DNA from: an uncultured Mycoplasmatota bacterium
GTDB lineage: Bacteria; Bacillota_I; Bacilli_A; RF39; UBA660
Assembly: GCA_946413985.1 (NCBI GenBank)
Contig: CAMKMS010000003.1
Location: forward strand, 1-61,696
Direction of reading: 5' to 3'
Length of the DNA stretch: 61,696 nt
Each line of letters begins with the position of its first letter. Position 1 is the stretch's first letter. The position numbers and the translations under genes were made by a program. The notes under the pieces are model-generated. The model was not told where the DNA came from, ran no database searches, and worked only from the letters and a program-made list of their open reading frames with translations. Below, in pieces: positions 29,131-47,620 of the stretch.

Positions 29131-29205
29131 GTGTAAAATATTTTATAATTAATTGCTACTTTTAAAATAAGCATGTATAATTATTATAAAGGATGGTATG
29201 TAATC

Positions 29206-29370
29206 ATGGATAAAAATGAAGGTAGTTCTAAAATTAAGCAACTAGAAAAAAATCGTGAGCAAGTGGAAAAAGAAATGAATGAATTTTCTAGATGTTTAGA
29301 TTTACTTGAAAAAACTGAGAGTTTAATAGCGTATTGCGATTCACTTTTAGAGAAAGAAGGTGAAAAATAG
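29206..29370 (+). CDS. Small helical hypothetical protein (~54 aa)
   Basis: MDKNEGSSKIKQLEKNREQVEKEM..., coiled-coil-like. Its stop lies 1 nt before the next ATG. The start is uncertain: the ORF track gives 29173. Confidence 0.4.
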   Translation: MDKNEGSSKIKQLEKNREQVEKEMNEFSRCLDLLEKTESLIAYCDSLLEKEGEK

Positions 29371-29371
29371 T

Positions 29372-30832
29372 ATGGAAAATACTGAATTAACAGAATTAGA
29401 ACAAAATATTGAAAAGATTAAAAACCTTATTTCTTATTCATCAAATATTGATAGGGAAAGTGTTGAAAAATTAAGAGATGTTTTAGAAGTAATTGATGGA
29501 ATCATCAGAATTAAACTTGCTGAAAATATTATTTCTAATAGTTCAGTAAAATCAAGAATCCAGGGAATTATAGATAAAAAAATAGATGAGTATAAAAAGA
29601 AAAAAGAAGAAATTGCTAGGTCAATACCTGAAGTTACTAATTATTCTGATGTAAGAATAGATGCATTAGATAAAGCAATTAGAACATTAGAAGATATTAA
29701 GAAAAATGTTCAAAAAGATTTTTATGATGGAGTATTAAAATCAATTTGTGGTGGAGATAAAGAATCTAGAAAAGATATTTTATACTATTGCTTGGATAGA
29801 CTTACAGAGGGCTATAATTATTATCCAAAATATTTAAAAGATGGATTATTAGTAGATGGAAATGGTAAACTTGCTAGGAGATATTCTGATAATGAGATAG
29901 TAATTAATAGAGATATTATAAATAAGATGTTTTCTATTTTATCTGATAAAGAATTTTGCCAAAGATTACGTGAATATTTTTCTGCTATAGCAAGAGCAGG
30001 TTATGCACAGTCAAATCTTGAAACAAGAGAAACTCTATTAATCAAATTGGATAGCTTAAAAAGAATGCGTAACTTTGATTTTAATGGAAGAGTAGCGGAA
30101 TTTAAAGATATTGTATATGAAGATGGGATATATGAGCACATTGCTGAAGAAAATAAATATAAAAATAAAATAAAACGTTTAAAGGATGAAAAGGCAAAGT
30201 ACTCTCGTGGATTTATTTCTAAATTATTTCATGGTAAAGAATTAATGGATTTGGAAGAAGAAATTGCAGATAAAGAAGCATTAGCTGGAATAAGTAATAC
30301 AACAGTAAAAAATGCTGTTAATAAAAGATTAGTTAGTGAACTAAGTAAACAATTTCCAGGAGCAGAAGAAACTCTAGATAAGATATTATTTACAAGCGTT
30401 AGTGAAACCGAAACGATAATTGACCAAGAAATTAAGAATGTAGAATCTAAGCTTGAAGAATTAAAAGATCAAGAATCTTATTATGATACAGAAATGAAAG
30501 CGGCTGCAGAAATATATCAATCACTTGGTGATAGAGTGGATAAAATTCCTGAAAGTGAATTACCATTATTTGAAAGTGTTGTAATGAGAAGTAATAGTAA
30601 TAAGTTTAGATTAATAGTATATATGTTAAAAGTTTTAAGTGATGTGGAAGGATTATCTTTTGATGAAGCTGTTAAAGGATATAGAGGCGGAGTTAAGAAA
30701 ATAGAAGCTTTATCACAATTCTATGAAGAACGTATTGGAGAGTATGAAAAGAAAAAAGAAGGAGAAATTAAATCTCAAATTGTAGCTGCTGAAGGAGAGT
30801 ATAAAGACTCAGAAATTCCAATTAGAAGATAA
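29372..30832 (+). CDS. Hypothetical coiled-coil protein (~486 aa), orphan
   Basis: ATG 29372 follows a GAAGGTGA RBS; the track GTG 29360 lies inside that RBS. K/E-rich helical sequence with no TM helix. No family recognised. Confidence 0.6.
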   Translation: MENTELTELEQNIEKIKNLISYSSNIDRESVEKLRDVLEVIDGIIRIKLAENIISNSSVKSRIQGIIDKKIDEYKKKKEEIARSIPEVTNYSDVRIDALDKAIRTLEDIKKNVQKDFYDGVLKSICGGDKESRKDILYYCLDRLTEGYNYYPKYLKDGLLVDGNGKLARRYSDNEIVINRDIINKMFSILSDKEFCQRLREYFSAIARAGYAQSNLETRETLLIKLDSLKRMRNFDFNGRVAEFKDIVYEDGIYEHIAEENKYKNKIKRLKDEKAKYSRGFISKLFHGKELMDLEEEIADKEALAGISNTTVKNAVNKRLVSELSKQFPGAEETLDKILFTSVSETETIIDQEIKNVESKLEELKDQESYYDTEMKAAAEIYQSLGDRVDKIPESELPLFESVVMRSNSNKFRLIVYMLKVLSDVEGLSFDEAVKGYRGGVKKIEALSQFYEERIGEYEKKKEGEIKSQIVAAEGEYKDSEIPIRR

Positions 30833-30836
30833 TATT

Positions 30837-30866
30837 AAAGAAACTTCATAATGAAGTTTCTTTTTT
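30837..30866. terminator. Bidirectional terminator
   Basis: GAAACTTCA-taa-TGAAGTTTC stem flanked by an A-run and a T-run, between convergent genes. Confidence 0.75.
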
Positions 30867-31563
30867 ATTCATTTAATCTTTTAGCATGTAATACTATTTT
30901 TCTATTATATGTATAGCATGAAGATAAGGTGAGTATTTTATCATTTGTATCAAGTTTAACATTATAATTATATATACTTCTATTTTCGATAGTATTTAAA
31001 AATACTTTAAAATCAGTTTTACTGGTAAAAGATGTTGTAATGTAGTAATCTTCTGTTTTAATTGTATAAGTACTAAAAACTTGATAATTAATTTTTTTAT
31101 TCTTTAAAAATATTGTAATTATGTGATTATCTTTATTTTTATACCAGTATTTTTTTATTACATTTTTAAGTGTTCCAAACATAGTTCCATCTTTTCTAGC
31201 ATGTGCATAAATGACTGTATTTTGATCATTAAAATCAGTATTGTTTTTGTAATCCATAAATAGCCATCCGCTATTAGAATATGTTTTATCTATAGAATGA
31301 TTTAAATAAAATGAATTATCATATGTTTTTAAAAATGGATAATTTATATTGGTATTATTTACTCTTAAAAATCCCACAGTATCATTATTCATATTTTTGA
31401 AATAGTCAATACTAATCATTCTTTCTTCTTTTGATGGAACTATTTCTTTATTTATTTCACTTATTATTTCTTTTGTGTGATGTGAATCTTTAATCCATAT
31501 TAAAACATTTACTATTGAATATATAAATAGTGTAGTAAAAATAATAAGAATTATTTTTTTCAT
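30865..31563 (-). CDS. srtB: Class B-like sortase
   Basis: N-terminal TM anchor, His motif VIYAHARKDGTMFGTL, catalytic Cys in LTLSSCY, and a C-terminal Arg (LHAKR). Lies 21 nt downstream of the PBP gene. Confidence 0.75.
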   Translation of the reverse strand: MKKIILIIFTTLFIYSIVNVLIWIKDSHHTKEIISEINKEIVPSKEERMISIDYFKNMNNDTVGFLRVNNTNINYPFLKTYDNSFYLNHSIDKTYSNSGWLFMDYKNNTDFNDQNTVIYAHARKDGTMFGTLKNVIKKYWYKNKDNHIITIFLKNKKINYQVFSTYTIKTEDYYITTSFTSKTDFKVFLNTIENRSIYNYNVKLDTNDKILTLSSCYTYNRKIVLHAKRLNE

Positions 31564-31584
31564 TAGTTATTATGTTAAATCTAA

Positions 31585-33657
31585 TTATTGTTTATTGTCT
31601 TCTTTTTTGTTTTCAGTTTCTTCTTTCTTTGGAGCATCTGCAACTCTAGTTGTAGGTTGCGTTCCTTTTATGAATAAATGTGTTTGTATTTTACTTCTTG
31701 GAGTTGAAGCAGATGGTAGTTTTGGTGGATTTGTTCCAAAGACTACTTGTGAATAAACAAGACCACTTGGACGAGTAAAAGTTGAATATTTTTTATGTAT
31801 TTTATTATTAATTTCTGCTTGTATTTTTTTTCTTTCTTCTCTTGCTTCATTAGTAGTATTATATGTTGATCTTGTTAATTTATCATATCCATACCATATA
31901 GCAACGCTATAATCTTTAGTAAATGTTGCTGTCCATGAATCTTGTATTACTTCACGATTTAATCCAAGACGTCTTAATCTTGTTTCATCATATGAACTTG
32001 TACCTGTCTTAGTAGCAATTTCTGTTCCTCTTACATATACTTGTGATGGTGTAACTCCTTGTAATATATATGCGATCATATAAGCAGTTGTTGCTTTCAT
32101 AACTCTTTTCTTTTTAAAATTGAATTTTTCAACAATATCTCCTGTTGATGTTTTATAAACAATTTTTTTAACAGAATGTGGTTCAGTATAATAACCACCA
32201 TTTCCAAAAGCAGAATATGCAGCAGCTAATTGTACTGGAGATACACCAGTAAATGCACCTATTGCATGTGCTTCATGAATGTATTTTGTTTTTCCTAAGT
32301 ATTCTGGTTTTATTCCAAGAGATGTTACAAATTTATTAATTTTATCATTACTTACTGCTTGAAATGCTTGAAGAGCACAAGTGTTTCTTGAGTCAACTAA
32401 ACATTCTTTTAGTGTTAAAAATCCTCTATATCTATAATCATAGTTTTGCATTATACCACCATCTGAATATCTTACAGGCTGATCCATAAAAGGAGTATAT
32501 GTTGACCAATTTTTGTATTCAATACCTGGACCATAATCAAATAATGGTTTAGCAGTAGAACCTGGATGACGTTTTATTTGAGTAGCATAGTTTAATGACA
32601 TTTCTGTTTTTTTATTACGACCAGCTCCTACTGCTACAATTGCTCCTGTTTTATTATCAATAACACCAATTCCTACTTGAACTTTTTTATCTTTAAATTT
32701 ATGTTTTTTATAGAAATTATTTATTACATCTTGTTTACTCTTTACCATAGTTGAATATATATCCATACTAACTTCATATGGATTGTTGCCAGTTCTATCA
32801 ATTACTTCTTGTACAACTGTATCAATAAATCCTTGATATTTATTAATCTTACTTGGTTGTTTTTTTAGTAATTTTTTAATATTTACTTTTAAGGCTGCAT
32901 TAGCCTCTGTTTCAGTTATAAATCCATGTCTTAACATCAGATTAATTACTTCATTTTTTCTTTCATTAGTTTTACTTGGATTAACGTATGGATCATATTC
33001 TCCAGGTGCTTGGAACATTCCAGCTATCATTGCTGCTTCAACTAAATTAATATTTCCAACATTTTTATTAAAATAGGTTTTAGCTGCCATAGCAACACCA
33101 TAGTTTCCACCACCTAAATATGGAGCATTTACATAAAATTCAAGTATTTCTTCTTTTGAATAGTCTCTCTCAATTTTGAACATTGACATATATACATCAG
33201 TAAATTTTCTTATTACACCAGCTATGCCTCTTGATTCAGTAGATGTAAATGAATTTTTTGATACTTGCATTGTTATAGTCGAAGCACCACCTGCATCTTT
33301 TCCTGAAAAGAATCCATAACTTGCTATCATAAATCTTGGTAAATCTACACCATTATGTTCAAAAAATCTTGCATCTTCAGTTGCTAAAATTGCATCTATT
33401 AAAACTTGAGGTAATTCTTTATATTCTACAATCTGTCTTTTCTCAGTACCAATAGTAGCTATTAAATTACCTTTTGAATCATATATGTTAGATGATTCTT
33501 TTTTATAAAGTAAGTCTTTATTAAACTCAGGGGCATTTATATAAATGAAATACATAAATCCGCATCCAGCCATAATAAAAATGACTATAAAAACAATGAT
33601 TATAGCACTAATATTATTGATTAAGTTAAATTTATGTTTCTTAACTTTTGTTTTCAT
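31585..33657 (-). CDS. Bifunctional class A penicillin-binding protein (glycosyltransferase GT51 plus transpeptidase)
   Basis: GT51 motifs ATEDARFFEHNGVD and GGSTITMQ. Transpeptidase motifs STAKP (SxxK) and KTGTS. N-terminal TM helix. Confidence 0.9.
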   Translation of the reverse strand: MKTKVKKHKFNLINNISAIIIVFIVIFIMAGCGFMYFIYINAPEFNKDLLYKKESSNIYDSKGNLIATIGTEKRQIVEYKELPQVLIDAILATEDARFFEHNGVDLPRFMIASYGFFSGKDAGGASTITMQVSKNSFTSTESRGIAGVIRKFTDVYMSMFKIERDYSKEEILEFYVNAPYLGGGNYGVAMAAKTYFNKNVGNINLVEAAMIAGMFQAPGEYDPYVNPSKTNERKNEVINLMLRHGFITETEANAALKVNIKKLLKKQPSKINKYQGFIDTVVQEVIDRTGNNPYEVSMDIYSTMVKSKQDVINNFYKKHKFKDKKVQVGIGVIDNKTGAIVAVGAGRNKKTEMSLNYATQIKRHPGSTAKPLFDYGPGIEYKNWSTYTPFMDQPVRYSDGGIMQNYDYRYRGFLTLKECLVDSRNTCALQAFQAVSNDKINKFVTSLGIKPEYLGKTKYIHEAHAIGAFTGVSPVQLAAAYSAFGNGGYYTEPHSVKKIVYKTSTGDIVEKFNFKKKRVMKATTAYMIAYILQGVTPSQVYVRGTEIATKTGTSSYDETRLRRLGLNREVIQDSWTATFTKDYSVAIWYGYDKLTRSTYNTTNEAREERKKIQAEINNKIHKKYSTFTRPSGLVYSQVVFGTNPPKLPSASTPRSKIQTHLFIKGTQPTTRVADAPKKEETENKKEDNKQ

Positions 33658-34798: not shown

Positions 34799-35758
34799 AT
34801 GCAAGTGATTAAAGCAATTGTTTTGTTACTAGTTGGTTTTGTTTTAATTGTAAAATGTTCTGATATATTTGTTGATGCTATTAGTAGTATTGCTTCATAT
34901 TGCAAAATGAGTAAAATGATGATTGCTCTTACTATAGGTGCATTTGGAACATGTGCTCCAGAACTTGCCATATCATTTTCAAGTATTAGTAGTGGAAATG
35001 GAGATATAGCTCTTGCTAATGTAATTGGTAGTTGTGTAATTAATATAACACTGGTTATTGGTATGGCGTGTTGTATATCCCCAATAAAAGTTAAAAATGA
35101 ATCAATTAAGAAAGAATTACCTATACTTCTTTTGGTTACAACAATGTTTTCCTTATCCTCTGTACTACATAAAGTAGAAGACAGTTCAATATTTGTTCTT
35201 GGAAGATTAGATGGATTATTATATGTATTCTTATTTTGTACATTTATGTTTTATATTTTATCTGTTATAAAAGCTAAAAAAGGTGTATTTGAATTTTTTA
35301 AACCAAAGTATAGTTTGCCAAAATCTTTAATATATACAGTAGTATGTGGTGTTTTAATAGTGGTTGCAAGTGATTTAATAGTTGATAATGCTGTAGAATT
35401 ATCATCTATGTTAAATATAAGTACAAAAATAATAACAATGACTATTGTTGTAATTGGTACATCTCTTCCAGAAATGACTATGACTGTAATAGCAGCAAAA
35501 AAGGGTGAATTTGATATTGCTCTTGGTAATATAATTGGAACAAATATATTTAATATTGGAATAGTACTAGGATTACCATTATTAATATATGGAAATATTT
35601 CCAGTAATCATTTTTCTTTAATAGATATGTTCTTTGTGTTATTATCAGCAGTATTATTGTATGTATTCTCTAAAAACGATAGGGTATTATCTAGAAAAGA
35701 AGGAGCTATATTTATAATAGTCTTTGTAATATATTATTCATATTTATTTATCGTTTAA
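34799..35758 (+). CDS. Ca2+/cation antiporter (CaCA, YrbG-like) membrane protein
   Basis: Two alpha-repeat motifs, GTCAPELAISF and GTSLPEMTMTV. About 10 TM helices. ATG 34799 lies 8 nt after AGGAGG; ATG 34793 is also possible. Confidence 0.8.
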   Translation: MQVIKAIVLLLVGFVLIVKCSDIFVDAISSIASYCKMSKMMIALTIGAFGTCAPELAISFSSISSGNGDIALANVIGSCVINITLVIGMACCISPIKVKNESIKKELPILLLVTTMFSLSSVLHKVEDSSIFVLGRLDGLLYVFLFCTFMFYILSVIKAKKGVFEFFKPKYSLPKSLIYTVVCGVLIVVASDLIVDNAVELSSMLNISTKIITMTIVVIGTSLPEMTMTVIAAKKGEFDIALGNIIGTNIFNIGIVLGLPLLIYGNISSNHFSLIDMFFVLLSAVLLYVFSKNDRVLSRKEGAIFIIVFVIYYSYLFIV

Positions 35759-35788
35759 ACTAATATCTTTTATTGATATTAGTTTTTT
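35758..35788 (+). terminator. Rho-independent terminator
   Basis: AACTAATATC-ttttatt-GATATTAGTT stem followed by TTTT. Confidence 0.75.
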
Positions 35789-35849
35789 ATTAAAATATTA
35801 GTGGAATAAAAACTCATTATATAGTATAATAATATAGGAGTTTTTTGAT

Positions 35850-38783
35850 ATGGAGTTTAATACAAAAAAATTTAAAAATAATATAATGTTTTTTATAGTT
35901 TGTATAGCTTTAATAGTAGTTTTATCTCTATTAACTCTTTTGGGTGAAAAAAGTAAGAATTATTATGATGAAAAAGATCTTACAGATAATGAAGTAAGTA
36001 TTAATAAACTTGTATTAAATGAATTAATGTCATCGAATAAAGGTGCCATAGCTTATGAAGATGGAAAACTATATGATTATATTGAAATATATAATGGTAA
36101 TGATCATGATATCAATTTAAAAAACTATGGTTTATCAGATAATAACAAAGAAGTAAAATGGGTTTTTCCTGATGTTACGATTGAGTCAAAGGCATATATG
36201 GTAATATTCTTAACTGGAAAAACAACTAATACTAGTGCTAACTTTAAATTAAAAAGTGGTGGTGGTGAAGTAGTAGCTTTATTAAAACCAAATGGAAAAG
36301 CAGTTGATGCGATTGAAACTGTGGCTCTTGATGGAAATACTGTTATGGCAAGAAATGAAGAAGGATCTTGGGTTATTCAAGATAAACCAACACCTGGATT
36401 TGCAAATACTATAAGTGGACATAAAGAATACTTAGAATCTTTAATGAGTAAAGATGAAAAAGAAATAGTAATAAATGAAATATTACCAGAAAACAAGGGA
36501 AATTTTAAAAATAAATCTGGTGTATATAGTGGATATATTGAAATAAAAAATATAAGTAACAAAAGTATTAATCTTGAAGGATATAGTTTATCTAATAGTG
36601 AAAATGCTCCTTTTAAATGGACTATTCCAAATGTTGTTTTACCAAGTAAAAGTGTTATGGTTATTTATACAAGTGGTGTTAGTAGTATTGAGGATGAACT
36701 AAGTACAAACTTTAAGTTAAAAAATAAAAATGGTGTAGTAATACTTAGTAATAATAAAGGTAAAATAATAGAAAAAGTTGAATATGAAAATCTAGGGAAT
36801 GGACTTGCTTATATTAGAGAAGATGATAAATTCTTAACAAATAATTCTATTAGTCCAGGATATCCTAATACTCTTGATGGTATTAAAGCTTTTCAAAAAA
36901 AATATTTAGTTAAAGTAAAAGATTTAATCATTAATGAAGTTATGAATTCTAATTATGAATATTTGGCACAGAATGGTGGAAAATATTATGATTGGATTGA
37001 ATTATATAATAATAGTGATAAGACAATTAATTTAAGTGATTATTGCCTAACTACTAATATTAATACTGCTTGTATGTATAATCTTGAAAAAAAGGAATTA
37101 AAGAGTAAAGAGTACTATATAGTAATGGCATCAGGTGATAAAAATTTATCAAATAAAAAGTATAAACATGCTGACTTTAAATTAGGAAGTACTGAGGGAA
37201 TTTATTTAACAAAGGATGATAAAATAATTGATACATTATTTATTGCTAATGTACCAAATGGTTATTCAATTGGAAAAGGTAGTAGTAGTGGAATTTATTA
37301 TTTTAGTAAACCAACTCCAGGAAAAGAAAATGATAGTGGTAAACAAGCTATATCATATTTACCAAGTGCTTCGGTTAAAAGTAAAATAATAAATAAAACA
37401 AAGGGATTCAAAGTAACTCTTAGTGGAAAAGATAATATTTATTATACGCTTGATGGTTCAGAGCCAACAACGTCTTCAAAAGTATACAGTAGTCCTCTTA
37501 CTATTAAGAAGACTACTGTTTTAAGAATAATGGCTAAAGAGGATGGAAAACTTAAAAGTGCTGTTAATACATATTCATATATAGTAAATGAAAATCATAC
37601 TTTACCAGTATTATCTTTAGCAATTGATGAAGATGATCTTAGCCATGTTAATTACAATACATCTCTAACAAGTAAAGTTCAAGAACCTGTTAATGTAGAA
37701 TTAATAGAACAAGATGGTAGTGGTTTTCAAGTAAATGGTGGCTTAAAACTATTTGGTGGTTCAACAAGATTTATGAGAAAGAAAAGCTATGAAATAAAAT
37801 TTAAAAAGAAATATGGGGATGCTCATTTGAATTATCCTTTATTTGATAGCGTAGATAGTAGTTCTTTTGAATCAATTGTTTTAAGGACTGGATCTCAAGA
37901 TGAATTTACAGCTTATTATGATGAGGGTGAAGAAGGTAGAACTTTAATTCGTGATATAGTGGCAACATCACTTGTTGGCGAGTATACAAATGTTGATGTT
38001 CAAGCATATAAACCGGTAGTACTATATATTAATGGTTCTTATTGGGGTCTATATTTTATTCGTGAAAAAGTTGATGAAAATTTTGTATCTAATCATTATA
38101 ATGTTAAAACTACAGAAGATGATACTGATATATTAAGAATTGATGGAGAAGTTAAATCTGGAAGTAATAAAGCATATAATGAAATGATGAGTTTTATTTA
38201 TAATAATTCATTAAGTGATAGTAATAATTATAAAAAAATAAAGGGATTAATTGATATAGAAAACTTATGTGATTTTTGGTTTGCTGAGATATGGACTAAT
38301 AATTATGATATAGTAAATACTAGATATTTTAGAAATAAGAATATTGATAATGGAAAATGGAAATTTATTTTTTATGATTTAGATAGTGGCTTATATCATG
38401 AAACTGGTTATGGATTTAATTATTATACTAGAGCTCAAGGTATTGGTTATGGTAATTTTAGTACAGCTCTTTTAAGAAATCTAATGAAAAGTAGTGAATT
38501 TAAAGAAACTTTCTTAAAAAGAATGAGTTATAATTTAAAAAACACATGGAGTGCTAAGAATTATGAAAAGAAAGTTGATGAAGTAGTTAAAGAAATTGGA
38601 AAAGATGAAATGAAAAGAAATCTTGAAAGATGGGATAATATGTCGTATAGTACTTGGCAGATGCATGTTAATGATTTAAAAGCTTTTGCTAGAAAAAGAA
38701 ATAAAGCTGTAATAGAAGATGCTAGATCTTATTTTGGATTATCAAGTGCAGAAGTTAAGAAGTATTTTGGTGATGTGGAATGA
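35850..38783 (+). CDS. Membrane-anchored CotH-family kinase-fold protein with three lamin-tail-domain-like repeats and a chitobiase/hexosaminidase-C-like module
   Basis: N-terminal TM helix. Three LTD-like repeats (INELMSSN...YIEIYNGNDHDINL, INEILPEN...YIEIKNISNKSINL, INEVMNSN...WIELYNNSDKTINL). IYYTLDGSEPTTSSKVYSSPLTI segment. CotH core motifs LRTGSQD, YINGSYWGLYFIREK and FYDLDSG. Confidence 0.8.
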   Translation: MEFNTKKFKNNIMFFIVCIALIVVLSLLTLLGEKSKNYYDEKDLTDNEVSINKLVLNELMSSNKGAIAYEDGKLYDYIEIYNGNDHDINLKNYGLSDNNKEVKWVFPDVTIESKAYMVIFLTGKTTNTSANFKLKSGGGEVVALLKPNGKAVDAIETVALDGNTVMARNEEGSWVIQDKPTPGFANTISGHKEYLESLMSKDEKEIVINEILPENKGNFKNKSGVYSGYIEIKNISNKSINLEGYSLSNSENAPFKWTIPNVVLPSKSVMVIYTSGVSSIEDELSTNFKLKNKNGVVILSNNKGKIIEKVEYENLGNGLAYIREDDKFLTNNSISPGYPNTLDGIKAFQKKYLVKVKDLIINEVMNSNYEYLAQNGGKYYDWIELYNNSDKTINLSDYCLTTNINTACMYNLEKKELKSKEYYIVMASGDKNLSNKKYKHADFKLGSTEGIYLTKDDKIIDTLFIANVPNGYSIGKGSSSGIYYFSKPTPGKENDSGKQAISYLPSASVKSKIINKTKGFKVTLSGKDNIYYTLDGSEPTTSSKVYSSPLTIKKTTVLRIMAKEDGKLKSAVNTYSYIVNENHTLPVLSLAIDEDDLSHVNYNTSLTSKVQEPVNVELIEQDGSGFQVNGGLKLFGGSTRFMRKKSYEIKFKKKYGDAHLNYPLFDSVDSSSFESIVLRTGSQDEFTAYYDEGEEGRTLIRDIVATSLVGEYTNVDVQAYKPVVLYINGSYWGLYFIREKVDENFVSNHYNVKTTEDDTDILRIDGEVKSGSNKAYNEMMSFIYNNSLSDSNNYKKIKGLIDIENLCDFWFAEIWTNNYDIVNTRYFRNKNIDNGKWKFIFYDLDSGLYHETGYGFNYYTRAQGIGYGNFSTALLRNLMKSSEFKETFLKRMSYNLKNTWSAKNYEKKVDEVVKEIGKDEMKRNLERWDNMSYSTWQMHVNDLKAFARKRNKAVIEDARSYFGLSSAEVKKYFGDVE

Positions 38784-39466
38784 AAGAATATAAATATAGA
38801 CATGAATTAAAATTTAAAATATCAGAAAGTGCTAGTGAAGTATTAAAACAGAAATTATCTTTAATAATGGCTACTGATGATAATGCTTTTTTTGAAGATG
38901 GATCATATTTAATTAAGAGTTTATATTTTGATGATTTGAATTCTAAGTCATATTATGAAAAAATGGATGGTGTATTATACAGAAAGAAATATAGAATTAG
39001 AATTTATAATGACGATGATTCATTTATTAGGCTTGAAAAGAAAATGAAACATAATAATATGACTGCTAAAGAGCAAATGTTGATTTCAAAGGATATCTAT
39101 TGTAAAATATTAAATGGTAATTATGATGAGATTCATAATGCAGAGGGGTTGTTATTAGAATTTCTAAATGACGCTAAAACTAAAGGTTTAATACCTTCAA
39201 TAATAGTTGGTTACCATAGAATAGCATTTATTTATCCAATAAGTGATGTTAGAATAACATTTGATTCTAATATTGAAAGTGGGCTATATAATTATGATTT
39301 GTTTGATAGTAATATGCCTACATATAGAGTTGATGAAAAAGGAAAAATAGTGCTTGAAGTTAAATTTAATGAAGTATTACCTTTACATATAGCAAATATA
39401 TTAAATGATATTCCATCGTGTAGGGAAGCAGTTAGTAAATTTGCAATATGTAGAAGTATAAAGTAA
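38780..39466 (+). CDS. VTC-domain (polyphosphate polymerase / triphosphate-tunnel fold) protein
   Basis: YRHELKFKI..., IKSLYFDD, YRIRIYN and LEKKMK strand pattern typical of bacterial VTC/CYTH-like proteins. Its ATG overlaps the cotH stop (ATGA). Confidence 0.65.
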   Translation: MKEYKYRHELKFKISESASEVLKQKLSLIMATDDNAFFEDGSYLIKSLYFDDLNSKSYYEKMDGVLYRKKYRIRIYNDDDSFIRLEKKMKHNNMTAKEQMLISKDIYCKILNGNYDEIHNAEGLLLEFLNDAKTKGLIPSIIVGYHRIAFIYPISDVRITFDSNIESGLYNYDLFDSNMPTYRVDEKGKIVLEVKFNEVLPLHIANILNDIPSCREAVSKFAICRSIK

Positions 39467-39476
39467 GGAGTAAAAT

Positions 39477-40175
39477 ATGAATATAGGTATGAGTGTTGTA
39501 GACACTATAAAAAAATCAGTTTTAGAAAATTTTACAGGAACTATTTCTGTAACAGATATGTTAATATCATTAGTGGTAGCTTTTCTAATAGGGTTATTCA
39601 TAATATATGTTTATAGGAAAACATATACTGGTGTTGTTTATTCAAAAGCATTTTCTTTATGTATTTTAATGCTTTCAATGGTAACAGCAATGATTATTAG
39701 AACAATTAGTAGTAATATTAGTTTATCTTTAGGTATGGTTGGTGCTTTATCTATTGTAAGATTTAGGACTGCTGTAAAAGAACCTGTTGATACTGGATTT
39801 ATGTTCTGGGGAATATCTGCTGGTATTATGGCAGGAGCTGGACTTTATATAATAGCAATCGTTGCTTCATTAATACTTGGTGTTTTATATTTCTTTACAT
39901 ATTTAATGGGATTTAGAGTTTCTAATAGATATCTACTTGTTTTAAAATATGATGTAGATGCTCATAATGAAGTAATGAAAAAATTAAGAGCATTAAAGAA
40001 GTTTAAAGTTAGAAGTAAATCAATCTTTAATGATAAAGTAGAATTATCACTTGAAGTAGATATTAAAGAAAACAAAAATGGTAGTGTAAGTACTACTATT
40101 GTAGATGAATTTAGTGGGGTGGATGGAATTATTAATGCTAGTTTAATAGCATATCAAAATGATTTTGGAGATTAG
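39477..40175 (+). CDS. DUF4956-family membrane protein
   Basis: TM helices plus the signature GALSIVRFRTAVKEPVDTGFMFWGISAGIMAGAG. Begins 10 nt after the VTC gene. Confidence 0.7.
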   Translation: MNIGMSVVDTIKKSVLENFTGTISVTDMLISLVVAFLIGLFIIYVYRKTYTGVVYSKAFSLCILMLSMVTAMIIRTISSNISLSLGMVGALSIVRFRTAVKEPVDTGFMFWGISAGIMAGAGLYIIAIVASLILGVLYFFTYLMGFRVSNRYLLVLKYDVDAHNEVMKKLRALKKFKVRSKSIFNDKVELSLEVDIKENKNGSVSTTIVDEFSGVDGIINASLIAYQNDFGD

Positions 40176-40189
40176 GAGTAAAAAAACAT

Positions 40190-41596
40190 ATGGAAAAAAA
40201 GAAAGTACTTAAAATAACACCTGTTTTAATAACACTAAATGTTTTAGTGTTATTTACTATTGTTGGATTTTACATGTTTAGATTAGTTAAGTACTATAAG
40301 ATTGAAAATGGGGATAATGATGAAGATGATACAGTTTATTTAGTTGATACTTTAAAAAGAAAACAAAGTTATTTGGATGAAACTAAAGGGCTAGTATTAA
40401 ATGAAGATACTGGAGTATATACATATAAAGGTAAAATAGATGATAATTATTTAAAATACTCTGGTATGATTTATAGAATACTTAGTATTGATAAAAATAA
40501 TAATATTAAGGCTGTAAGTGAAAGTAATGTTACTATATTATATCCAGAATTAAAAAAAGGATATGAAAAATCATCTATTAATAAGTGGTTAAATGTTAGT
40601 GAGGCAAAATATAGTGGTATTTATGAAAAAACTTTAGTAGATTCTGATGACTTACTTGTAAAGACAAGTTTTTGTAATGATGTAATTGATGATGTATCTA
40701 GTATTACATGTGATAATGTATTAGATACTTATAATATTTCATTATTATCTTTGTATGATTATAAAATGGCTGGCGGAAAAGAAAGTTTTTTAAATAATGG
40801 AGATATATTTTATTTAGGTTCATTAAATAGTAAAAATGATGAATACTATGTTACAGATGAAGGCGAAATAGCTTTAAATGAAAGAGATAGTAAAGCAATA
40901 ACAATAAAACCAGTAATTACTATTTCTGGTGGAAGTAAATTGTTAAGTGGAGATGGTAGTAAAAATAAACCATACATTATTGAAAAACATAAAATAAATA
41001 CTATCGCAGATGCTTACGTAAATAGTATTGTTAAAATTGATGATATAAATTATAAAGTAATTGAAGTTCAAAAAAATAAAGTTAAATTAACTTCATTAGA
41101 TGTAATTATGAAAAAAGAAAAACCATATTTAATTAAATTTGGTGGTGAAACAAGCGCATATACAACTACTAATACAGTAGGTAAGTATTTAAATAAAACA
41201 TTTTTAAAATCATTGAGTTTAAAAGATTATGTTGTAAATGGAAATTATTTTATTGGATCTCTTGCGCTTACAAATCTTGATTATGCTTATGCAAGAAGTG
41301 AAACAGTAAAAGCTAAAGTAGGTATGCTTACTATTGGTGATATGTTTATAAATGAAACTACAAATACATTTACATTATTAAGAGGTATGGAAGATGTTGA
41401 TATTATTAATGTTATAAATGAAAATGGAGGTATTTTTGCTGATACAATAGAAGCAAAATATAATGTTAGACCAGCATTTTATATTAAAAGCAGTTTAGAA
41501 ATACTATCTGGAAAAGGAACATTAAATAGTCCATATGAGTTGGGAGTTAAAAATGAAGAAGCAGAAAACAGTGAAAAAACAGAAACAGAAGGTTAG
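40190..41596 (+). CDS. Membrane-anchored extracytoplasmic protein with an internally duplicated domain
   Basis: N-terminal TM helix (ITPVLITLNVLVLFTIVGFYMF). Two domain ends share the pattern KPVITISGGSKLLSGDGSKNKPYII and VRPAFYIKSSLEILSGKGTLNSPYEL. Acidic C-terminal tail. Confidence 0.6.
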   Translation: MEKKKVLKITPVLITLNVLVLFTIVGFYMFRLVKYYKIENGDNDEDDTVYLVDTLKRKQSYLDETKGLVLNEDTGVYTYKGKIDDNYLKYSGMIYRILSIDKNNNIKAVSESNVTILYPELKKGYEKSSINKWLNVSEAKYSGIYEKTLVDSDDLLVKTSFCNDVIDDVSSITCDNVLDTYNISLLSLYDYKMAGGKESFLNNGDIFYLGSLNSKNDEYYVTDEGEIALNERDSKAITIKPVITISGGSKLLSGDGSKNKPYIIEKHKINTIADAYVNSIVKIDDINYKVIEVQKNKVKLTSLDVIMKKEKPYLIKFGGETSAYTTTNTVGKYLNKTFLKSLSLKDYVVNGNYFIGSLALTNLDYAYARSETVKAKVGMLTIGDMFINETTNTFTLLRGMEDVDIINVINENGGIFADTIEAKYNVRPAFYIKSSLEILSGKGTLNSPYELGVKNEEAENSEKTETEG

Positions 41597-42572
41597 TAAA
41601 TTTAGTATATTCTTAATATTTGTGGATATAATAGCTTTAGCATGCTTCTTTTTAGCATATGGGCCAGTAGATTATTTTAGAGATTTTTATGTAACTTCTG
41701 CTATGACAAGTATGACTCATAAGTATTTTGCTTATACTCTTTATAGTGAAGAAGAAATAGAAAGAATTCTTGATAATAATAAAATAATTGAGCCTGAAGA
41801 AGATACTGATTCTTCTAAGATTACTTTCAATCCTAATTTTGAGACTGATACATATGAATCTATTTATGAAGAACAAATATTAAAGAAGAATAAGGGAAAT
41901 GATATATATAAAATAATAAAAGTTGATGAGCCATCATATGTAATGTATATTACTGCAATTTATGATCCATCAAGAATAGACTTAGTATCTGCTAATAACT
42001 TGGCCTATGGAGGACAAGAAGTAGAAGAAATGGCAAAAGATAATAATGCTCTTGTTGCAATTAATGCTGGTGCTGCTGCAATAATAGGCCGTTCATTAGT
42101 ACCAAGAGGTATTTTCATGATGGATGGTAAAGTACTATATGATAGTGGAGAAGCTGAAAAAATAATTGCATTTAATAAAGATCATGCACTTGTACTTGCC
42201 ACAATGACTTCAAAACAAGCTAAAAAGGCTGGCATTGTTGATGCAGTATATTTTGGACCATTTTTAATTGTTAATGGTAAAGCAGCTAAATTTGATGGTG
42301 ATGGTGGATATGGAAATAGACCAAGAACAGCTATTGGTCAAAGACAAGATGGAATAGTATTATTTATTACTATTAATGGTAAAGCTGGTTTTAATGGTGT
42401 AACCATGGAAGAATTAACTAAAATATTTGTAAGATATAAAGCATATAATGCAGCTAATCTTGATGGTGGTGGTTCTACAACGCTAGTTGAAAAAGGTGAA
42501 CTAATTAATGATCCAGCAGGATGGGGTTATAGTGGCGCTCGACATGTTGCAAATGCATTTATTGTAAAATAG
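41553..42572 (+). CDS. Phosphodiester glycosidase-family protein (NAGPA / uncovering-enzyme-like domain), membrane anchored
   Basis: N-terminal TM helix. AINAG..., GPFLIVNGK, PRTAIGQRQDG and NLDGGGSTTL motifs. Overlaps the end of the upstream gene. Confidence 0.75.
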   Translation: MKKQKTVKKQKQKVSKFSIFLIFVDIIALACFFLAYGPVDYFRDFYVTSAMTSMTHKYFAYTLYSEEEIERILDNNKIIEPEEDTDSSKITFNPNFETDTYESIYEEQILKKNKGNDIYKIIKVDEPSYVMYITAIYDPSRIDLVSANNLAYGGQEVEEMAKDNNALVAINAGAAAIIGRSLVPRGIFMMDGKVLYDSGEAEKIIAFNKDHALVLATMTSKQAKKAGIVDAVYFGPFLIVNGKAAKFDGDGGYGNRPRTAIGQRQDGIVLFITINGKAGFNGVTMEELTKIFVRYKAYNAANLDGGGSTTLVEKGELINDPAGWGYSGARHVANAFIVK

Positions 42573-42581
42573 GTGATTGAT

Positions 42582-43607
42582 ATGAAAAAGAGGGTTTTAT
42601 ATTTTGATTTGTTGAAAATTGTTTCCATTATATTTGTTGTACTAATACATGTTATTAGTGAATTTTGGAGTTTTTTAGATGTTAATAGTAATTCTTTTAT
42701 AGTATTATCTATACTAGATTCTATTTCAAGATTTTGTGTACCCATTTATTTTATGGTAAGTGGGGCTCTTTTCTTAAATGAAGAAAAGAAAATAACAATA
42801 AAAGATGTTTTAAAAAAATATGTACCTAGAGTATTACTATTATTTGTATTTTGGAATTTAACATATAGTTTTCTATATATTATATTTGATAGTAGAACTA
42901 TAACAATTAATACAGTTTATAATGTGTTTTTAGATACTATATTAGGAGATGGAATATTTCATTTATATTTTTTACCTATAATTATTGGATTTTATTTGTG
43001 TTTACCAATATTAAAACAAATAACTAAAAAAGAAAATAGAAACATATTAAAATATTTAATAATATTACTATTTATATTTGGTGGATTTAATAGAATATTT
43101 GATTATTTGTTTAATGTTACTATATCTTATACAATTGTATTTGGAGAATTTCTTATTTATTTTATACTTGGTTATTATTTAAATACATTTGATATATCAA
43201 AAAAGAATACTAAATTAATATATGCATTTGGAATTATTGGTCTAGTTATTACACTTTTTGGAACAATAATTAGTTCTAAAGCAAATGGTATTACTGATGT
43301 ATTCTTTAAGTATGATACTTTTAATGTTATTTTATATTCATCATCTGTTTTCTTATTTGCTAAAAATAATTTTGTAAGATTTAATGAAAAAGTATTAAAA
43401 TTATTAACACAAACTAATTTCGGAGTTTATTTAATTCATGGGCTTATACTTGGATTCTTTGAGTATATAGGATTATTTGGTAAAATTGCTGATGTTTCTA
43501 TAGCTTTATCTGTTTTATTAAATAGTATAATTATATATTTAATGTCTACTTTATGTGTTTATGTTTTAATTAAAATACCATATATAAGAAAATTGGTTTC
43601 ATTATAA
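42582..43607 (+). CDS. Acyltransferase family 3 (membrane O-acyltransferase)
   Basis: AGGTGA RBS. FDLLKIVSIIFVVLIHV start, about 10 TM helices, PIYFMVSGALF motif. Confidence 0.8.
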   Translation: MKKRVLYFDLLKIVSIIFVVLIHVISEFWSFLDVNSNSFIVLSILDSISRFCVPIYFMVSGALFLNEEKKITIKDVLKKYVPRVLLLFVFWNLTYSFLYIIFDSRTITINTVYNVFLDTILGDGIFHLYFLPIIIGFYLCLPILKQITKKENRNILKYLIILLFIFGGFNRIFDYLFNVTISYTIVFGEFLIYFILGYYLNTFDISKKNTKLIYAFGIIGLVITLFGTIISSKANGITDVFFKYDTFNVILYSSSVFLFAKNNFVRFNEKVLKLLTQTNFGVYLIHGLILGFFEYIGLFGKIADVSIALSVLLNSIIIYLMSTLCVYVLIKIPYIRKLVSL

Positions 43608-43628
43608 GAAGTTTACACTTCTTTTTTT
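43606..43628 (+). terminator. Rho-independent terminator closing the six-gene CotH operon
   Basis: AAGAAGT-ttac-ACTTCTT stem followed by TTTTT. Confidence 0.75.
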
Positions 43629-43699
43629 GTGGTTTTTGAAATATTGATTTTAAGTTTTGATATGCTATAATTATTATATAATAAGGAGAGTGGGTAATA

Positions 43700-44257
43700 A
43701 TGGAATTAAGAGATGGAGCATCAAAAATATATTTAATAAGCGGAAAAGCAAGACATGGCAAGGATACATTTTCTTCATATTTAAAAAGTGTTTATGAGAA
43801 AAATGGAAAGAAAGTAATTGTTACTCAGTTATCAAAGTATATTAAATATTATGCAAGAGAAATAACAGGATGGAATTTAACTGAAGAAGATAAGCCAAGA
43901 GAATTGCTTCAAACTCTTGGAACGGGAATTATTCGTGAGAAATTAGGAAAAGATGATTTATTTATAAATAGAATGGTTGATGATATTGAAATATTCTCAT
44001 GTTTTTATGACGCTATTATTATTAGTGATGTAAGACTTAAAAAAGAGATAGATGATTTAAGAGTTCATTTTCCTGATTTAGTAAGTATAAATATATTTAG
44101 ACCTAATTTTGATAATGGATTAACTGAAGAACAAAAAAAGCATAAAACTGAAATAGATCTTGACGATTATGATAAGTTTAATGAACAAATTATCAATACT
44201 ACACTAGAAGAATTAATGAAAAATGCAGAAAATATATACACAAAATACGAAAGATAG
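43700..44257 (+). CDS. P-loop kinase-like protein (dNMP-kinase-like)
   Basis: ISGKARHGKDT Walker-A variant resembling phage-type deoxynucleotide monophosphate kinases. 185 aa. GGAGAG RBS. Confidence 0.5.
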   Translation: MELRDGASKIYLISGKARHGKDTFSSYLKSVYEKNGKKVIVTQLSKYIKYYAREITGWNLTEEDKPRELLQTLGTGIIREKLGKDDLFINRMVDDIEIFSCFYDAIIISDVRLKKEIDDLRVHFPDLVSINIFRPNFDNGLTEEQKKHKTEIDLDDYDKFNEQIINTTLEELMKNAENIYTKYER

Positions 44258-45405: not shown

Positions 45406-45468
45406 AATTATTTATCTATTTAATTTTTTTTTGATTAAATATTTGTTATAATTAGTATGGTGAAATAT

Positions 45469-46740
45469 ATGAGTATTTTGGAGTTATGTGATAATGGAGA
45501 TGTTTTATCAGTCTTAAGAATAGTTAATATAGTGTTAACAATTATTAGAGTTTCTGTTCCAATTATATTAATACTATCTTTAATGATTGGTTATATGAGT
45601 GCAGTAAAAGATAATGATAGTGATGCTCTAAATAAAGTAAATAAACAAGCAGCTGTTAAAATAATATCTGCCGTACTTGTATTTTTAATACCAACATTTG
45701 TTAAATTAATTGTTGAAATAGCAGATCCTGGAAATAGATCATATTTGTCGTGCATTAATAGTGCTACCACAGAAAATATAAGTGAAGCTTATAGAATTGA
45801 AGCTGAAAAATATATTGATATTGCAAGTGAAAGTTTAAGAAAGACAGACTATGATATGGCAGAAAGAATGTATTCAAAAGTTAAAAGTGATAAAGATAAA
45901 GAAGAATTAAGACGTGAACTCGATGAATTAAAAAAATATATAGATTTAAGAGAAAAAATTGTTACTTTAGGGAAAAATTTTAATAGAGATGATTATAAAG
46001 CAATAAAAGATGAGATAGAAAAAATAGAAGATCCATATATGAAAGAAAGAATGGAAGATATTTTAAAAGAATATGTTGGTTCTAAAGGAGGGATTGCTCA
46101 GTTCGATATTGATCCAAATTCTGAATTATATAGAAATTTGAAAAATTTTGACGGTAAAACTTTAAAAGCAGTTTTAGAAGAAAATGGTTCTAGTGTTGAA
46201 AAATTAAATGCTCAAATGCAAGCAGCTGTAGAAGCAGTTGGTGTTGGAACAAGAGAAGCACCTGTAGTAGCAGGTTTAACATTAATTGAAACACTAGCTA
46301 ATTATGGTTATAGAATTAACTATGACTGGGGTGGAAAATGGTATCATGTAGGAATAGATGGTGAAATGGGTAAGAGAATAAATCCTCCATATTGTGATTC
46401 TCACCCAAATCCAGATAGATGTAGAACAAAATTAATTTGGAAAGGATTTGACTGTAGTGGTTTTGTTAACTGGTCATTTATTCAAGGGTTTAATAATGAA
46501 AAAGCAAACAGAGAATATACTGTAGCTAGTGGTGGAATATCATTAAGAGGTCAAACAACAGCAATTTGTAATGTTGGTGATGTTGTAGTAAATGAAGATC
46601 ATATTACTATGGTTGTTGGACATGATGATGAAAAGAAAAAATATATTATTATGGAATCTACTGGTGGAGGAGTTAAACTTTCATATTATGATTATAATAA
46701 TGCTTCATATTATTGTAGACACGTAAAATATTCAAATTAG
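45469..46740 (+). CDS. Membrane-associated coiled-coil protein with a C-terminal NlpC/P60-like cysteine peptidase domain
   Basis: Two N-terminal TM helices, a K/E/D-rich helical linker, then a C-terminal FDCSGFVNWSF (catalytic Cys context) with HITMVVGH downstream. Start is 45457 or 45469 (GGTGA RBS). Confidence 0.6.
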   Translation: MSILELCDNGDVLSVLRIVNIVLTIIRVSVPIILILSLMIGYMSAVKDNDSDALNKVNKQAAVKIISAVLVFLIPTFVKLIVEIADPGNRSYLSCINSATTENISEAYRIEAEKYIDIASESLRKTDYDMAERMYSKVKSDKDKEELRRELDELKKYIDLREKIVTLGKNFNRDDYKAIKDEIEKIEDPYMKERMEDILKEYVGSKGGIAQFDIDPNSELYRNLKNFDGKTLKAVLEENGSSVEKLNAQMQAAVEAVGVGTREAPVVAGLTLIETLANYGYRINYDWGGKWYHVGIDGEMGKRINPPYCDSHPNPDRCRTKLIWKGFDCSGFVNWSFIQGFNNEKANREYTVASGGISLRGQTTAICNVGDVVVNEDHITMVVGHDDEKKKYIIMESTGGGVKLSYYDYNNASYYCRHVKYSN

Positions 46741-46793: not shown

Positions 46794-46861
46794 AAAATCT
46801 TTAAAATATACCGTAGAAATATATATAATTATTGTATTATAATAAAGAAAAAGGAGAAAAA

Positions 46862-47620
46862 ATGAAAATTAAAGTATTGGTAGTAGATGATAGTGCAGTA
46901 CAAGTGCAGTTGTTGAAGAAGTACTTTAATGGAAGTGAAAAAGTAGAAGTAGTAGCTAGTGCATCAAATGGGGAGGAATTTCTAAATCTATTAGAAAACA
47001 AGAAAATAGATTTTGATATTCTAATTCTTGATCTTGTTATGCCACTTTTAGATGGATTTGAAGTCCTAGAGTATATGAAAGAACATAATATTGATAAGAA
47101 AACCATAGTAATGACATCTTTTAATGAAGATGAAACTATTAGAAGAGTTAGTGAATATGGATGTAAGTATTATGCTTTAAAACCATTTGATTTTAAAAAA
47201 CTAGAAAGTATTATAATAAGTATTAATAATTCGATTAAAGCAAGTAAAGAATTAATTGAAATGCAAGATAAGGATTTACAAATAAAAGTTACTAATTTAT
47301 TACATGCTTTGGGTATACCATCACACATAAAAGGATATCAATATATACGTTCTGCTATACTTATGGTTTATGATAATCCTAGTTTTATTGGAGGAATAAC
47401 TAAAGAATTATATCCAGATTTAAGTATTAAGTTTAATACATCCATAGATAGAGTAGAAAGAGCAATAAGACATGCTATTGAATTATCTTGGAATAGAGGA
47501 GATATAGATTTAATGGAAAGTATATTTGGAAATAGTGTTGATATAGATAGAGCTAAACCAACTAATTCAGAATTTATTGTTACAATAGCTGATAAATTAA
47601 GACTTGATATGATTGCATAA
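46862..47620 (+). CDS. spo0A: Sporulation master regulator Spo0A (response regulator)
   Basis: Receiver domain (VLVVDDS, ILDLVMPLLDG). The Spo0A-specific C-terminal domain shows GIPSHIKGYQYIRSAI, ERAIRHAIE and KPTNSEFI. AAAGGAG RBS before ATG 46862. Confidence 0.9.
   Translation: MKIKVLVVDDSAVQVQLLKKYFNGSEKVEVVASASNGEEFLNLLENKKIDFDILILDLVMPLLDGFEVLEYMKEHNIDKKTIVMTSFNEDETIRRVSEYGCKYYALKPFDFKKLESIIISINNSIKASKELIEMQDKDLQIKVTNLLHALGIPSHIKGYQYIRSAILMVYDNPSFIGGITKELYPDLSIKFNTSIDRVERAIRHAIELSWNRGDIDLMESIFGNSVDIDRAKPTNSEFIVTIADKLRLDMIA

Follow-up and report, generated by a model that had tools for sequence, protein, structure and literature searches.

A CotH–VTC–DUF4956 gene module outside Pel loci: a possible membrane-spanning phosphoryl-transfer system in uncultured gut Bacilli

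Genes for a CotH-family kinase, a polyphosphate (polyP) polymerase of the VTC type and a DUF4956 membrane protein have been described, together with DUF4832, as accessory genes of Gram-positive Pel loci, and the trio has also been reported from streptococci and bifidobacteria (Whitfield et al. 2020, PMC7112168). In Streptococcus intermedius (SIR_1594-1592) deletion of the CotH or the DUF4956 gene changes the Pel level and aggregation, and the synteny of the three genes was stated not to be found outside Pel loci (mBio 2025, PMC12345266). In Clostridium perfringens, genes for VTC, CotH and a membrane protein have been listed for the locus NELoc-2 (Lepp et al. 2010, PMC2879425). Here we analyze such a trio in a 61.7-kb stretch of DNA from an uncultured Mycoplasmatota bacterium (contig CAMKMS010000003.1, positions 1 to 61,696; hereafter the window), which is strongly AT-rich with a GC content of 26.6% and in which CotH, VTC and DUF4956 are the first three genes of a cluster of six (Table 1).

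As in the Pel accessory set, the genes for CotH, VTC and DUF4956 are contiguous in the window, CotH is predicted to be exported, VTC to be cytoplasmic and DUF4956 to have four to five transmembrane (TM) segments and an ACT-like C-terminal domain. The setting, however, is a different one. The 61.7 kb contain neither pelDEADAFG nor DUF4832, and hidden Markov models (HMMs) for PelF, PelG, DUF2194, PelE and DUF4832, built from Pel-linked loci, gave no match in the window. In place of a C-terminal FN3 domain, CotH has three LTD repeats and a CHB_HEX_C module, the partners of the trio are a DUF6273-like ectoprotein (here called P4), a NAGPA-like enzyme and an acyltransferase (AT3), and the cluster is embedded in a glycolytic/housekeeping block. 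NELoc-2 resembles the window in having a CotH gene and in that its VTC genes are each followed by a gene for a membrane protein of about 222-226 aa, which is annotated as 'tubulin/FtsZ' and is likely DUF4956. Unlike the window, this variable, pathogenicity-associated locus of necrotic-enteritis strains has the VTC pair duplicated around a resolvase gene, is associated with genes for a HEAT-repeat protein and for a chitin-synthase-like glycosyltransferase, and lacks NAGPA and P4. The window cluster is new in its non-Pel setting, in its NAGPA and DUF6273-like partners and in its location in a housekeeping block. An earlier, sequence-only reading of the window had held that the trio has no experimentally assigned function. 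This stands as far as biochemistry is concerned, of which the literature searched contains none, and does not stand in so far as the trio had already been described and deletion phenotypes exist.

Relatives were located by a scan with a profile of diverse VTC sequences; they come from at least 594 species genomes, of whose loci 80 were analyzed. The loci were scored with HMMs built from the window proteins, and 44 loci had full flanks (6 kb or more to either side). In 79 of 84 sources DUF4956 adjoins VTC, and the five exceptions all lie at contig ends, so that the pairing is practically obligatory. All 44 fully flanked loci have DUF4956; 35 have CotH, 8 have Pel genes and 9 have P4/NAGPA. The Pel-linked loci were recovered as such, with PelF, PelG, DUF2194 and DUF4832 confirmed by Pfam, and 27 of the 35 fully flanked trio loci have no Pel link, which contradicts the published statement on synteny (PMC12345266). 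The trio loci stem from Clostridia, Bacilli and Collinsella, and three gene orders occur, namely CotH-VTC-DUF4956, VTC-DUF4956-CotH (e.g., in Clostridioides difficile and Paraclostridium ghonii) and CotH-DUF4956-VTC. In the loci analyzed P4 and NAGPA are confined to a clade of gut "Bacilli/Tenericutes" metagenome-assembled genomes (MAGs), in two cases in divergent orientation, and an AT3 gene is present in none of the 83 other loci. The cluster is thus built of three layers, a widespread CotH-VTC-DUF4956 trio, the clade-specific pair P4 and NAGPA, and AT3, which is found in the window only. The assumption that all six genes are co-conserved had to be given up, and the window shows the trio to be a self-contained module and not a Pel accessory.

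Within the gut Bacilli clade the arrangement is retained in some detail. On the contigs of the P4 relatives the genes follow as CotH (with three LTD repeats)-VTC-DUF4956-P4-NAGPA, in the same order and with the same overlaps, and the CotH/VTC and the P4/NAGPA overlap are also found in relatives that are 50-96% identical. The surrounding housekeeping block reads WhiA, PRK, GAPDH, the cluster, a P-loop kinase, PGK, TIM, a Spo0A_C-type regulator, iPGM and the S10 ribosomal operon; in the window a Na/Ca exchanger gene flanks the cluster on one side and the genes for the P-loop kinase and PGK on the other. When the window proteins were compared with those of three relatives (L001, L003 and L004), VTC (79-84%) and DUF4956 (75-83%) had higher identities than the glycolytic enzymes PGK (63-69%) and iPGM (66-68%), and CotH (61-64%), NAGPA (48-53%) and P4 (47-51%) had lower ones. 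Judged by these values, VTC and DUF4956 are under stronger constraint than glycolytic enzymes, the exposed proteins evolve faster, and the module has the character of a core function of this clade rather than of an accessory island. Mirror-tree distance correlations between VTC, DUF4956 and CotH are all similar (r 0.78-0.85); they fit a co-inheritance of the three genes and do not discriminate between the models discussed below.

For the stand-alone trio a Pfam census covering 147 immediate neighbors was carried out, in which only OmpR-type two-component systems and RNA methyltransferases were recurrent families. Pairs of an OmpR/PhoB-family regulator and a histidine kinase recur in seven loci (L023, L055, L067, L030, L006, L046 and L025), mainly in Clostridia (Tissierella, Proteocatella, Paraclostridium, Syntrophomonas, Oscillospiraceae, Ruminococcus) and in one Bacilli MAG. 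An assignment of these neighbors to PhoPR was rejected: they are generic members of the OmpR/PhoB family, and their best NCBIfam matches, PhoB, PhoR, PnpS and WalK, lie below the equivalog cutoffs. In three loci a protein with two to three LTD repeats and no CotH domain is encoded directly 5′ of VTC-DUF4956 (L031, 2767-4227; L041, 8537-9988; L058, 8368-9444). The replacement of CotH by such LTD-only exoproteins suggests that the LTD repeats are linked to the VTC-DUF4956 pair independently of the kinase, and so to whatever the pair makes. In two further CotH-less loci the gene after VTC-DUF4956 codes in one for a protein of 1200 aa that includes a GH130 mannooligosaccharide phosphorylase domain (L030, 10555-14157) and in the other for a GH26 mannanase (L068, 11556-12680).

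Domains were called with Pfam at the gathering thresholds and topology from hydropathy. All five proteins with a named domain passed, so that the earlier assignments to CotH, VTC, DUF4956, NAGPA and Acyl_transf_3 hold, and hydropathy agrees with the earlier view that every member other than VTC is TM-anchored or polytopic. In the CotH protein a TM segment (residues 12-30) is followed by three LTD repeats (E 1e-41), a CHB_HEX_C_1/Fn3_assoc module (residues 521-577, E 2e-14) and the kinase domain (residues 633-953); the lamin-tail-like repeats and the hexosaminidase-C-like module had been recognized correctly from the letters. The kinase domain covers positions 2-321 of the 322 positions of the CotH profile (PF08757, E 2e-39, 136.7 bits vs a cutoff of 23.8). 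A single-sequence search of the PDB with CotH gave no match and a profile was required, which matches the Bacillus cereus CotH structure 5JD9 (Nguyen et al. 2016, as cited in PMC7821199) with E 3e-34. D820 (in the motif NNYD) and D843 (in YDLD) align to the catalytic/metal-binding residues D228 and D251 of Bacillus subtilis CotH, their spacing of 23 residues is the same in the B. subtilis and B. cereus proteins, and both are conserved without exception in 15 diverse VTC-linked CotH domains. Mutation of D228 or D251 inactivates B. subtilis CotH (PMC7821199). Judged from these alignments, the catalytic aspartates of the window protein are intact. By prediction, all of the catalytic portion is on the outer side of the membrane, and an N-terminal hydrophobic segment is present in 54 of 58 VTC-linked CotH proteins.

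Bacillus CotH works inside the mother cell, in spore-coat assembly. The window protein shares with it the CotH domain with its PKL (protein kinase-like) fold, as well as both catalytic aspartates. It differs in size (977 aa vs 359 aa for the 5JD9 chain), in being membrane-anchored and predicted to be extracellular, in its N-terminal LTD/CHB_HEX_C extension of 600 residues and in its genetic coupling to VTC-DUF4956 without CotB/CotG partners; a CotB/CotG-like gene with Ser/Lys/Arg-rich repeats was not noticed in the annotated flanks, in which no specific search for it was made. In one close relative (L086, 769-3643) the CotH gene is called as two open reading frames (ORFs), one for an LTD-only protein of 307 aa and one for a protein of 612 aa, and this split may stem from a frameshift, from pseudogene formation or from faulty assembly.

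The VTC protein consists of the VTC domain only (PF09359, E 2e-32, 112.9 bits vs a cutoff of 23) and has no TM segment by hydropathy, as is the case for all 84 VTC proteins inspected. Its profile matches the triphosphate tunnel metalloenzyme (TTM) structures of yeast Vtc4 (3G3Q, 5IIG and 8I6V; E 1e-12 to 2e-11), with weaker matches to Vtc2 (E 1.4e-6) and Vtc3 (E 2e-3). K11, R72, R74 and K88 align to K200, R264, R266 and K281 of Vtc4, and K97, Y145, R147 and R158 to K294, Y359, R361 and R373. In 60 homologues of 34-67% identity these residues are invariant except R147, which is at least 90% conserved. Also invariant in the 60 homologues are E193 and K195 in an LEVK strand, which the profile alignment pairs weakly with the LEVK strand of Vtc4; we take E193 to be the counterpart of Vtc4 E426. 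R264, R266 and E426 are the residues that were mutated to inactivate yeast VTC (PMC9911596). The alignment points to a complete active site of the Vtc4 polymerase type. Vtc4-type VTC proteins form 4384 protein clusters at 50% identity. About one-fifth of the best VTC representatives have N-terminal extensions of 140-400 residues, which in the three representatives read (P0251, P0256 and P0277) are of low complexity and rich in Pro, Arg, Glu and Lys; in the 10 longest of the 150 best representatives (360-620 aa) Pfam found no domain besides VTC.

In common with the yeast VTC complex (Vtc4/Vtc3/Vtc1) the window has the catalytic residues of the TTM tunnel, a soluble cytoplasmic polymerase domain together with a membrane component, and conserved basic residues at what is probably the membrane interface. 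Unlike in yeast, the window VTC is a separate protein of 228 aa without SPX domain and without fused TM helices, the membrane partner is the MgtC-like DUF4956 and not the three-helix VTC transmembrane domain, and translocation would proceed across the cytoplasmic membrane to the outside.

The DUF4956 protein matches its Pfam family with E 1e-11 (45 bits vs a cutoff of 30.6) and the NCBIfam model MgtC/SapB only weakly (27.6 bits vs a cutoff of 214). It is thus a DUF4956 family member and at most a distant relative of MgtC. Three segments exceed the hydropathy threshold, and AlphaFold2 (AF2) suggests five membrane helices, followed by a C-terminal beta-alpha-beta-beta-alpha-beta domain of the ACT-like type. 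As the confidence of this model is low (pLDDT 55), only its secondary structure was used; the prediction is poor because the retrievable homologues are all at least 82% identical. The helix and ACT-like pattern and the weak MgtC/SapB match agree with what has been published for the streptococcal homologue. In 74 diverse DUF4956 sequences the motif S84-x-GMVGALSIV-R95-F-R97-TA-x-K101-x-P-x-D105 is essentially invariant, with R95, R97 and K101 conserved in all of them. From hydropathy and the positive-inside rule we infer that the RFRTAxK part of the motif is located at the cytoplasmic end of the third helix. There it may parallel, by analogy, the positively charged path that leads in yeast VTC from the exit of the tunnel to the channel.

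Taken together, VTC is predicted to be cytoplasmic, DUF4956 to reside in the membrane, and CotH, P4 and the NAGPA-like enzyme to be outside. We therefore propose, tentatively and as a possibility rather than a probability, that the cluster is a membrane-spanning phosphoryl-transfer machine for the cell surface. On the cytoplasmic side of the membrane VTC would build polyP from the phosphate of ATP, DUF4956 would take over the polyP chain from VTC and pass it outward, acting as a functional analogue and not a homologue of the transmembrane channel of yeast VTC, and CotH, placed by its three LTD repeats and the CHB_HEX_C module, would use the exported polyP as phosphoryl donor or as substrate, with a surface polymer as acceptor. 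P4 and the NAGPA-like enzyme would act on the same surface polymer in the gut Bacilli clade, the latter by removing HexNAc caps from HexNAc-1-phosphodiesters in wall material, and AT3 would be a strain-specific add-on for O-acylation. We give this chain of events, from the synthesis of polyP by VTC through its outward passage via DUF4956 to the phosphorylation of a surface polymer by an extracellular CotH, somewhat less than an even chance. CotH would use polyP since there is no ATP supply outside the cell. A model with polyP export is favored because in yeast VTC the synthesis of polyP is coupled to its transit, by way of a basic path, through a channel in the membrane (PMC9911596). The sequence-only reading had suggested that phosphate-linked decorations are installed or edited on a surface glycopolymer. 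The domain identities and the topology of that reading hold. Such decorations would be hypothetical, glycan-synthesis genes not being enriched among the neighbors of the trio outside Pel-linked and NAGPA-linked loci; the target of CotH could as well be a general wall component or a protein.

If true, the proposal would explain how phosphorylation can take place outside the cell without external ATP, and the VTC-DUF4956 pair with its exported kinase offers a testable idea for surface phosphorylation in Gram-positive bacteria. PPK1 and PPK2 are the enzymes to which bacterial polyP synthesis is ascribed, and an active Vtc4-type polymerase would be an unstudied third route. Speculative, and to be held with clear doubt, is the wider idea of a bacterial counterpart of VTC in which a Vtc4-like polymerase and a DUF4956 channel extrude polyP to power an extracellular CotH and which has become a core envelope function in one gut Bacilli lineage. 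Among the carriers are C. difficile, necrotic-enteritis strains of C. perfringens, streptococci from the mouth and from abscesses, and uncultured Bacilli that are abundant in the gut, so that the function is relevant to biofilms, to the envelope and to interaction with the host.

Several points weigh against this proposal. The studied member of the MgtC family is a regulator rather than a channel by published accounts, the model of DUF4956 is of too low a confidence to show a pore, and the literature searched holds no evidence that DUF4956 conducts anything. We know of no PKL-fold kinase that uses polyP as donor. Biochemistry of polyP synthesis by a bacterial VTC-domain protein was likewise not found in the literature searched, and none of the 10 longest of the 150 best VTC representatives is a fusion of VTC and DUF4956. 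About 20% of the fully flanked VTC-DUF4956 pairs (9 of 44) have no CotH within 10 kb, so that the handling of polyP must also have a role that is independent of CotH. Glycan-synthesis genes are not enriched among the 147 neighbors of the stand-alone trio. Finally, deletion of the VTC gene of S. intermedius gave no aggregation phenotype, unlike deletion of the CotH or the DUF4956 gene (PMC12345266).

The CotH-less pairs fit an intracellular role, in which VTC-DUF4956 would be a membrane-tethered polyP synthase or regulator that serves a store of phosphate or cations in the cytoplasm and replaces PPK1 as an alternative, and CotH a separate, co-regulated exported kinase. DUF4956 would then only anchor or regulate, as MgtC regulates phosphate/ATP homeostasis, and its weak MgtC/SapB match, its MgtC-like helices and its ACT-like C-terminal domain are in line with such a role. 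The very high conservation of the pair is what is expected of a housekeeping metabolic enzyme, and the recurrence of OmpR/PhoB-family two-component systems as neighbors would also be compatible. We nevertheless regard an intracellular polyP store as unlikely. CotH is adjacent in 80% of the full loci and in three gene orders, its ATGA overlap with VTC implies translational coupling, exported LTD-only proteins stand in for it in some loci, and the exported kinase would still be left without a phosphoryl donor.

Less likely again is that the exported polyP is itself the product, a polyanionic wall layer standing in for teichoic acid. CotH would then be a ligase or anchor that joins polyP to a wall sugar or protein, with the LTD repeats binding the polyanion. 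This reading shares its genetics and topology with the phosphoryl-transfer proposal, and the linkage of LTD-only proteins to VTC-DUF4956, the conservation above that of glycolytic enzymes and the position of the cluster among wall and housekeeping genes (GlmM, MurF-like, Ddl, PBP1a, sortase) would all suit a wall layer. The active site of CotH, however, resembles that of an ordinary phosphotransferase.

VTC might also not be a polymerase at all. The TTM superfamily is catalytically diverse (PMC4641920), and CYTH/TTM members can be triphosphatases. With VTC as a triphosphate-tunnel hydrolase or signaling enzyme the trio would be a regulatory circuit for exopolymer production, as the Pel papers suggest, and the altered Pel after deletion of CotH or DUF4956, together with the lack of an aggregation phenotype in the VTC deletion, is what such a circuit could produce. 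The conserved residues are, however, those of the Vtc4 polymerase, K200 included, the profile fits Vtc4 far better than Vtc2 or Vtc3, and most trio loci have no exopolymer locus nearby that could be regulated, which leaves this explanation improbable. Collinsella, streptococci and bifidobacteria are non-sporulating genera. A role in the spore coat or in sporulation, as for Bacillus CotH, to which family membership and the Spo0A_C response regulator at 46832-47620 could point, is very improbable because the window CotH has an N-terminal TM anchor, unlike the mother-cell protein of Bacillus, and because the trio occurs in Collinsella loci and, by published report (PMC7112168), in streptococci and bifidobacteria; nor was a CotB/CotG-like gene noticed next to the cluster in the flank annotation, in which no specific search was made, and the earlier view that the machinery acts at the surface rather than in a spore coat is upheld.

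Turning to the layout of the cluster, the ORF list confirms six co-directional genes between 35850 and 43607. The minimal spacing described earlier is confirmed as well, the last two values depending on the choice of start codon. The CotH stop and the VTC start share the ATGA at 38780-38783, the gap between VTC and DUF4956 is 10 nt and that between DUF4956 and P4 14 nt. P4 and NAGPA overlap by 44 nt if NAGPA begins at the ATG at 41553 (GGGAG 7 nt 5′), and the gap between NAGPA and AT3 is 9 nt if AT3 begins at the ATG at 42582 (AGGTG 5′); both codons have good Shine-Dalgarno sequences. Of the two flanking hairpin terminators that had been proposed, the upstream one is well supported (35757-35785, 11-bp stem, dG -10.3 kcal/mol, z -4.3 vs shuffles). 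The downstream hairpin (43606-43623) is weak (dG -6.2, z -1.4), has a T-run 3′ of it and is a probable weak terminator. The AT-rich stems explain why a consensus terminator scan detected neither of them. At 43644-43671 the sequence TTGATT-16-TATAAT, with a TG extension and agreement at 10 of 12 positions, forms a promoter-like site that would serve the next gene. Rfam, run over the whole window, found no riboswitch and no other RNA.

Table 1. Features of the six-gene cluster and its boundaries in the window
Feature	Position	Strand	Description
Upstream hairpin with T-run	35757-35793	+	End of Na/Ca-exchanger gene, upstream boundary of the operon, AT-rich
CotH	35850-38783	+	977 aa, membrane-anchored, exported, predicted CotH-family kinase
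VTC	38780-39466	+	228 aa, soluble, cytoplasmic, Vtc4-type triphosphate-tunnel polyP-polymerase-like
DUF4956	39477-40175	+	232 aa, membrane protein, MgtC-like architecture
P4	40190-41596	+	468 aa, membrane-anchored ectoprotein, two homologous beta-rich domains
NAGPA-like	41553-42572	+	339 aa (345 aa from alternative ATG 41535), membrane-anchored, putative phosphodiester alpha-HexNAc-ase
AT3	42582-43607	+	341 aa, polytopic Acyl_transf_3 O-acyltransferase; alternative GTG start 42573
Downstream hairpin with T-run	43606-43629	+	After AT3 gene, short

P4 has a single N-terminal TM segment by hydropathy and no Pfam match above threshold, and an exact-sequence look-up gave no match, while at least 573 homologues of the same length exist. 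That it is made of duplicated domains, as had been proposed, was borne out by a profile-profile comparison of its halves with hhalign (probability 96.7%, E 4e-10). The motif RP......SG.G....PY closes each domain, and the AF2 model (pLDDT 88.6) consists of the TM helix and two beta-rich domains. With DUF6273 (PF19789, cutoff 23.5) P4 scores 13.6 bits, its homologue P0101 28.4 bits and the homologues P0026 and P0076 21-22 bits. The only significant fold match is the Thomasclavelia ramosa IgA peptidase (9qa6; E 2e-4, TM-score 0.31 over 306 columns, the matched part of the chain not being given), whose N-terminal domain has been described as having a C-type-lectin-like core. The P4 domains may thus be distantly DUF6273-like and are compatible with a C-type-lectin-like core; as a lead only, the model looks like a binding module and not like an enzyme.

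The NAGPA-like protein matches NAGPA (PF09992) with E 2e-39 (135.9 bits vs a cutoff of 25), has a single TM segment at residues 23-41 and retains the catalytic-loop motif DGGGS at residues 304-308, a loop that is invariant and essential according to the 2026 structure paper on human NAGPA (PMC13474241). It shares with this lysosomal uncovering enzyme the domain, the DGGGS motif, a membrane tether and a catalytic domain on the non-cytoplasmic side. In contrast to the lysosomal enzyme it is bacterial, has its anchor at the N-terminus, lacks an EGF stalk and gives no evidence of a propeptide. Human and bacterial NAGPA are less than 20% identical (PMC13474241).

AT3 matches Acyl_transf_3 (PF01757) over residues 9-333 and positions 2-325 of the 326 positions of the profile (E 1e-35, 123.8 bits vs a cutoff of 31) and has about 10 hydrophobic segments. 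The gene has a GC content of 19.7% compared with 24-31% in the adjoining genes, and it is lacking even in the close relatives L084-L088, whose DUF4956 proteins are 92-96% identical. In the relatives without AT3 the gene for the P-loop kinase directly adjoins the NAGPA gene or overlaps with it; AT3 is thus a recent insertion and a strain- or species-specific addition to the operon.

The P-loop kinase gene (43700-44257, 185 aa) lies directly 3′ of the cluster in every close relative. Its product has weak Pfam matches to DNMK and phosphomevalonate kinase, and the only PDB match is the dNMP kinase of phage T4 (E 5e-3). In L084 and L085 the gene overlaps the NAGPA stop codon and may be part of the same transcription unit. 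Farther downstream, L001, L003 and L004 have a gene for a 235-aa triose-phosphate isomerase between pgk and the Spo0A_C-type regulator gene. In the window (45457-46740) and in L084-L088 this slot is occupied by a gene for a protein of 423-429 aa that falls into no Pfam family, with a sub-threshold match to NlpC/P60 only and no match in the PDB. The Spo0A_C response regulator gene itself lies between pgk and iPGM throughout the clade, an unusual place for a Spo0A-like gene.

Upstream of the cluster the neighbors differ among the relatives and include GlmM, GlmS and a pilin-like N_methyl protein, compared with DAGK and the Na/Ca exchanger in the window. In L087 a serpin-family gene (3233-4282) is located immediately 5′ of CotH. 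The region 18904-33657 of the window is rich in wall genes, with a GlmM-like mutase, a MurF-like Mur ligase, Ddl, a class A penicillin-binding protein (PBP1a) and a sortase. The organism is therefore walled, despite the 'Tenericutes' label on some of its relatives.

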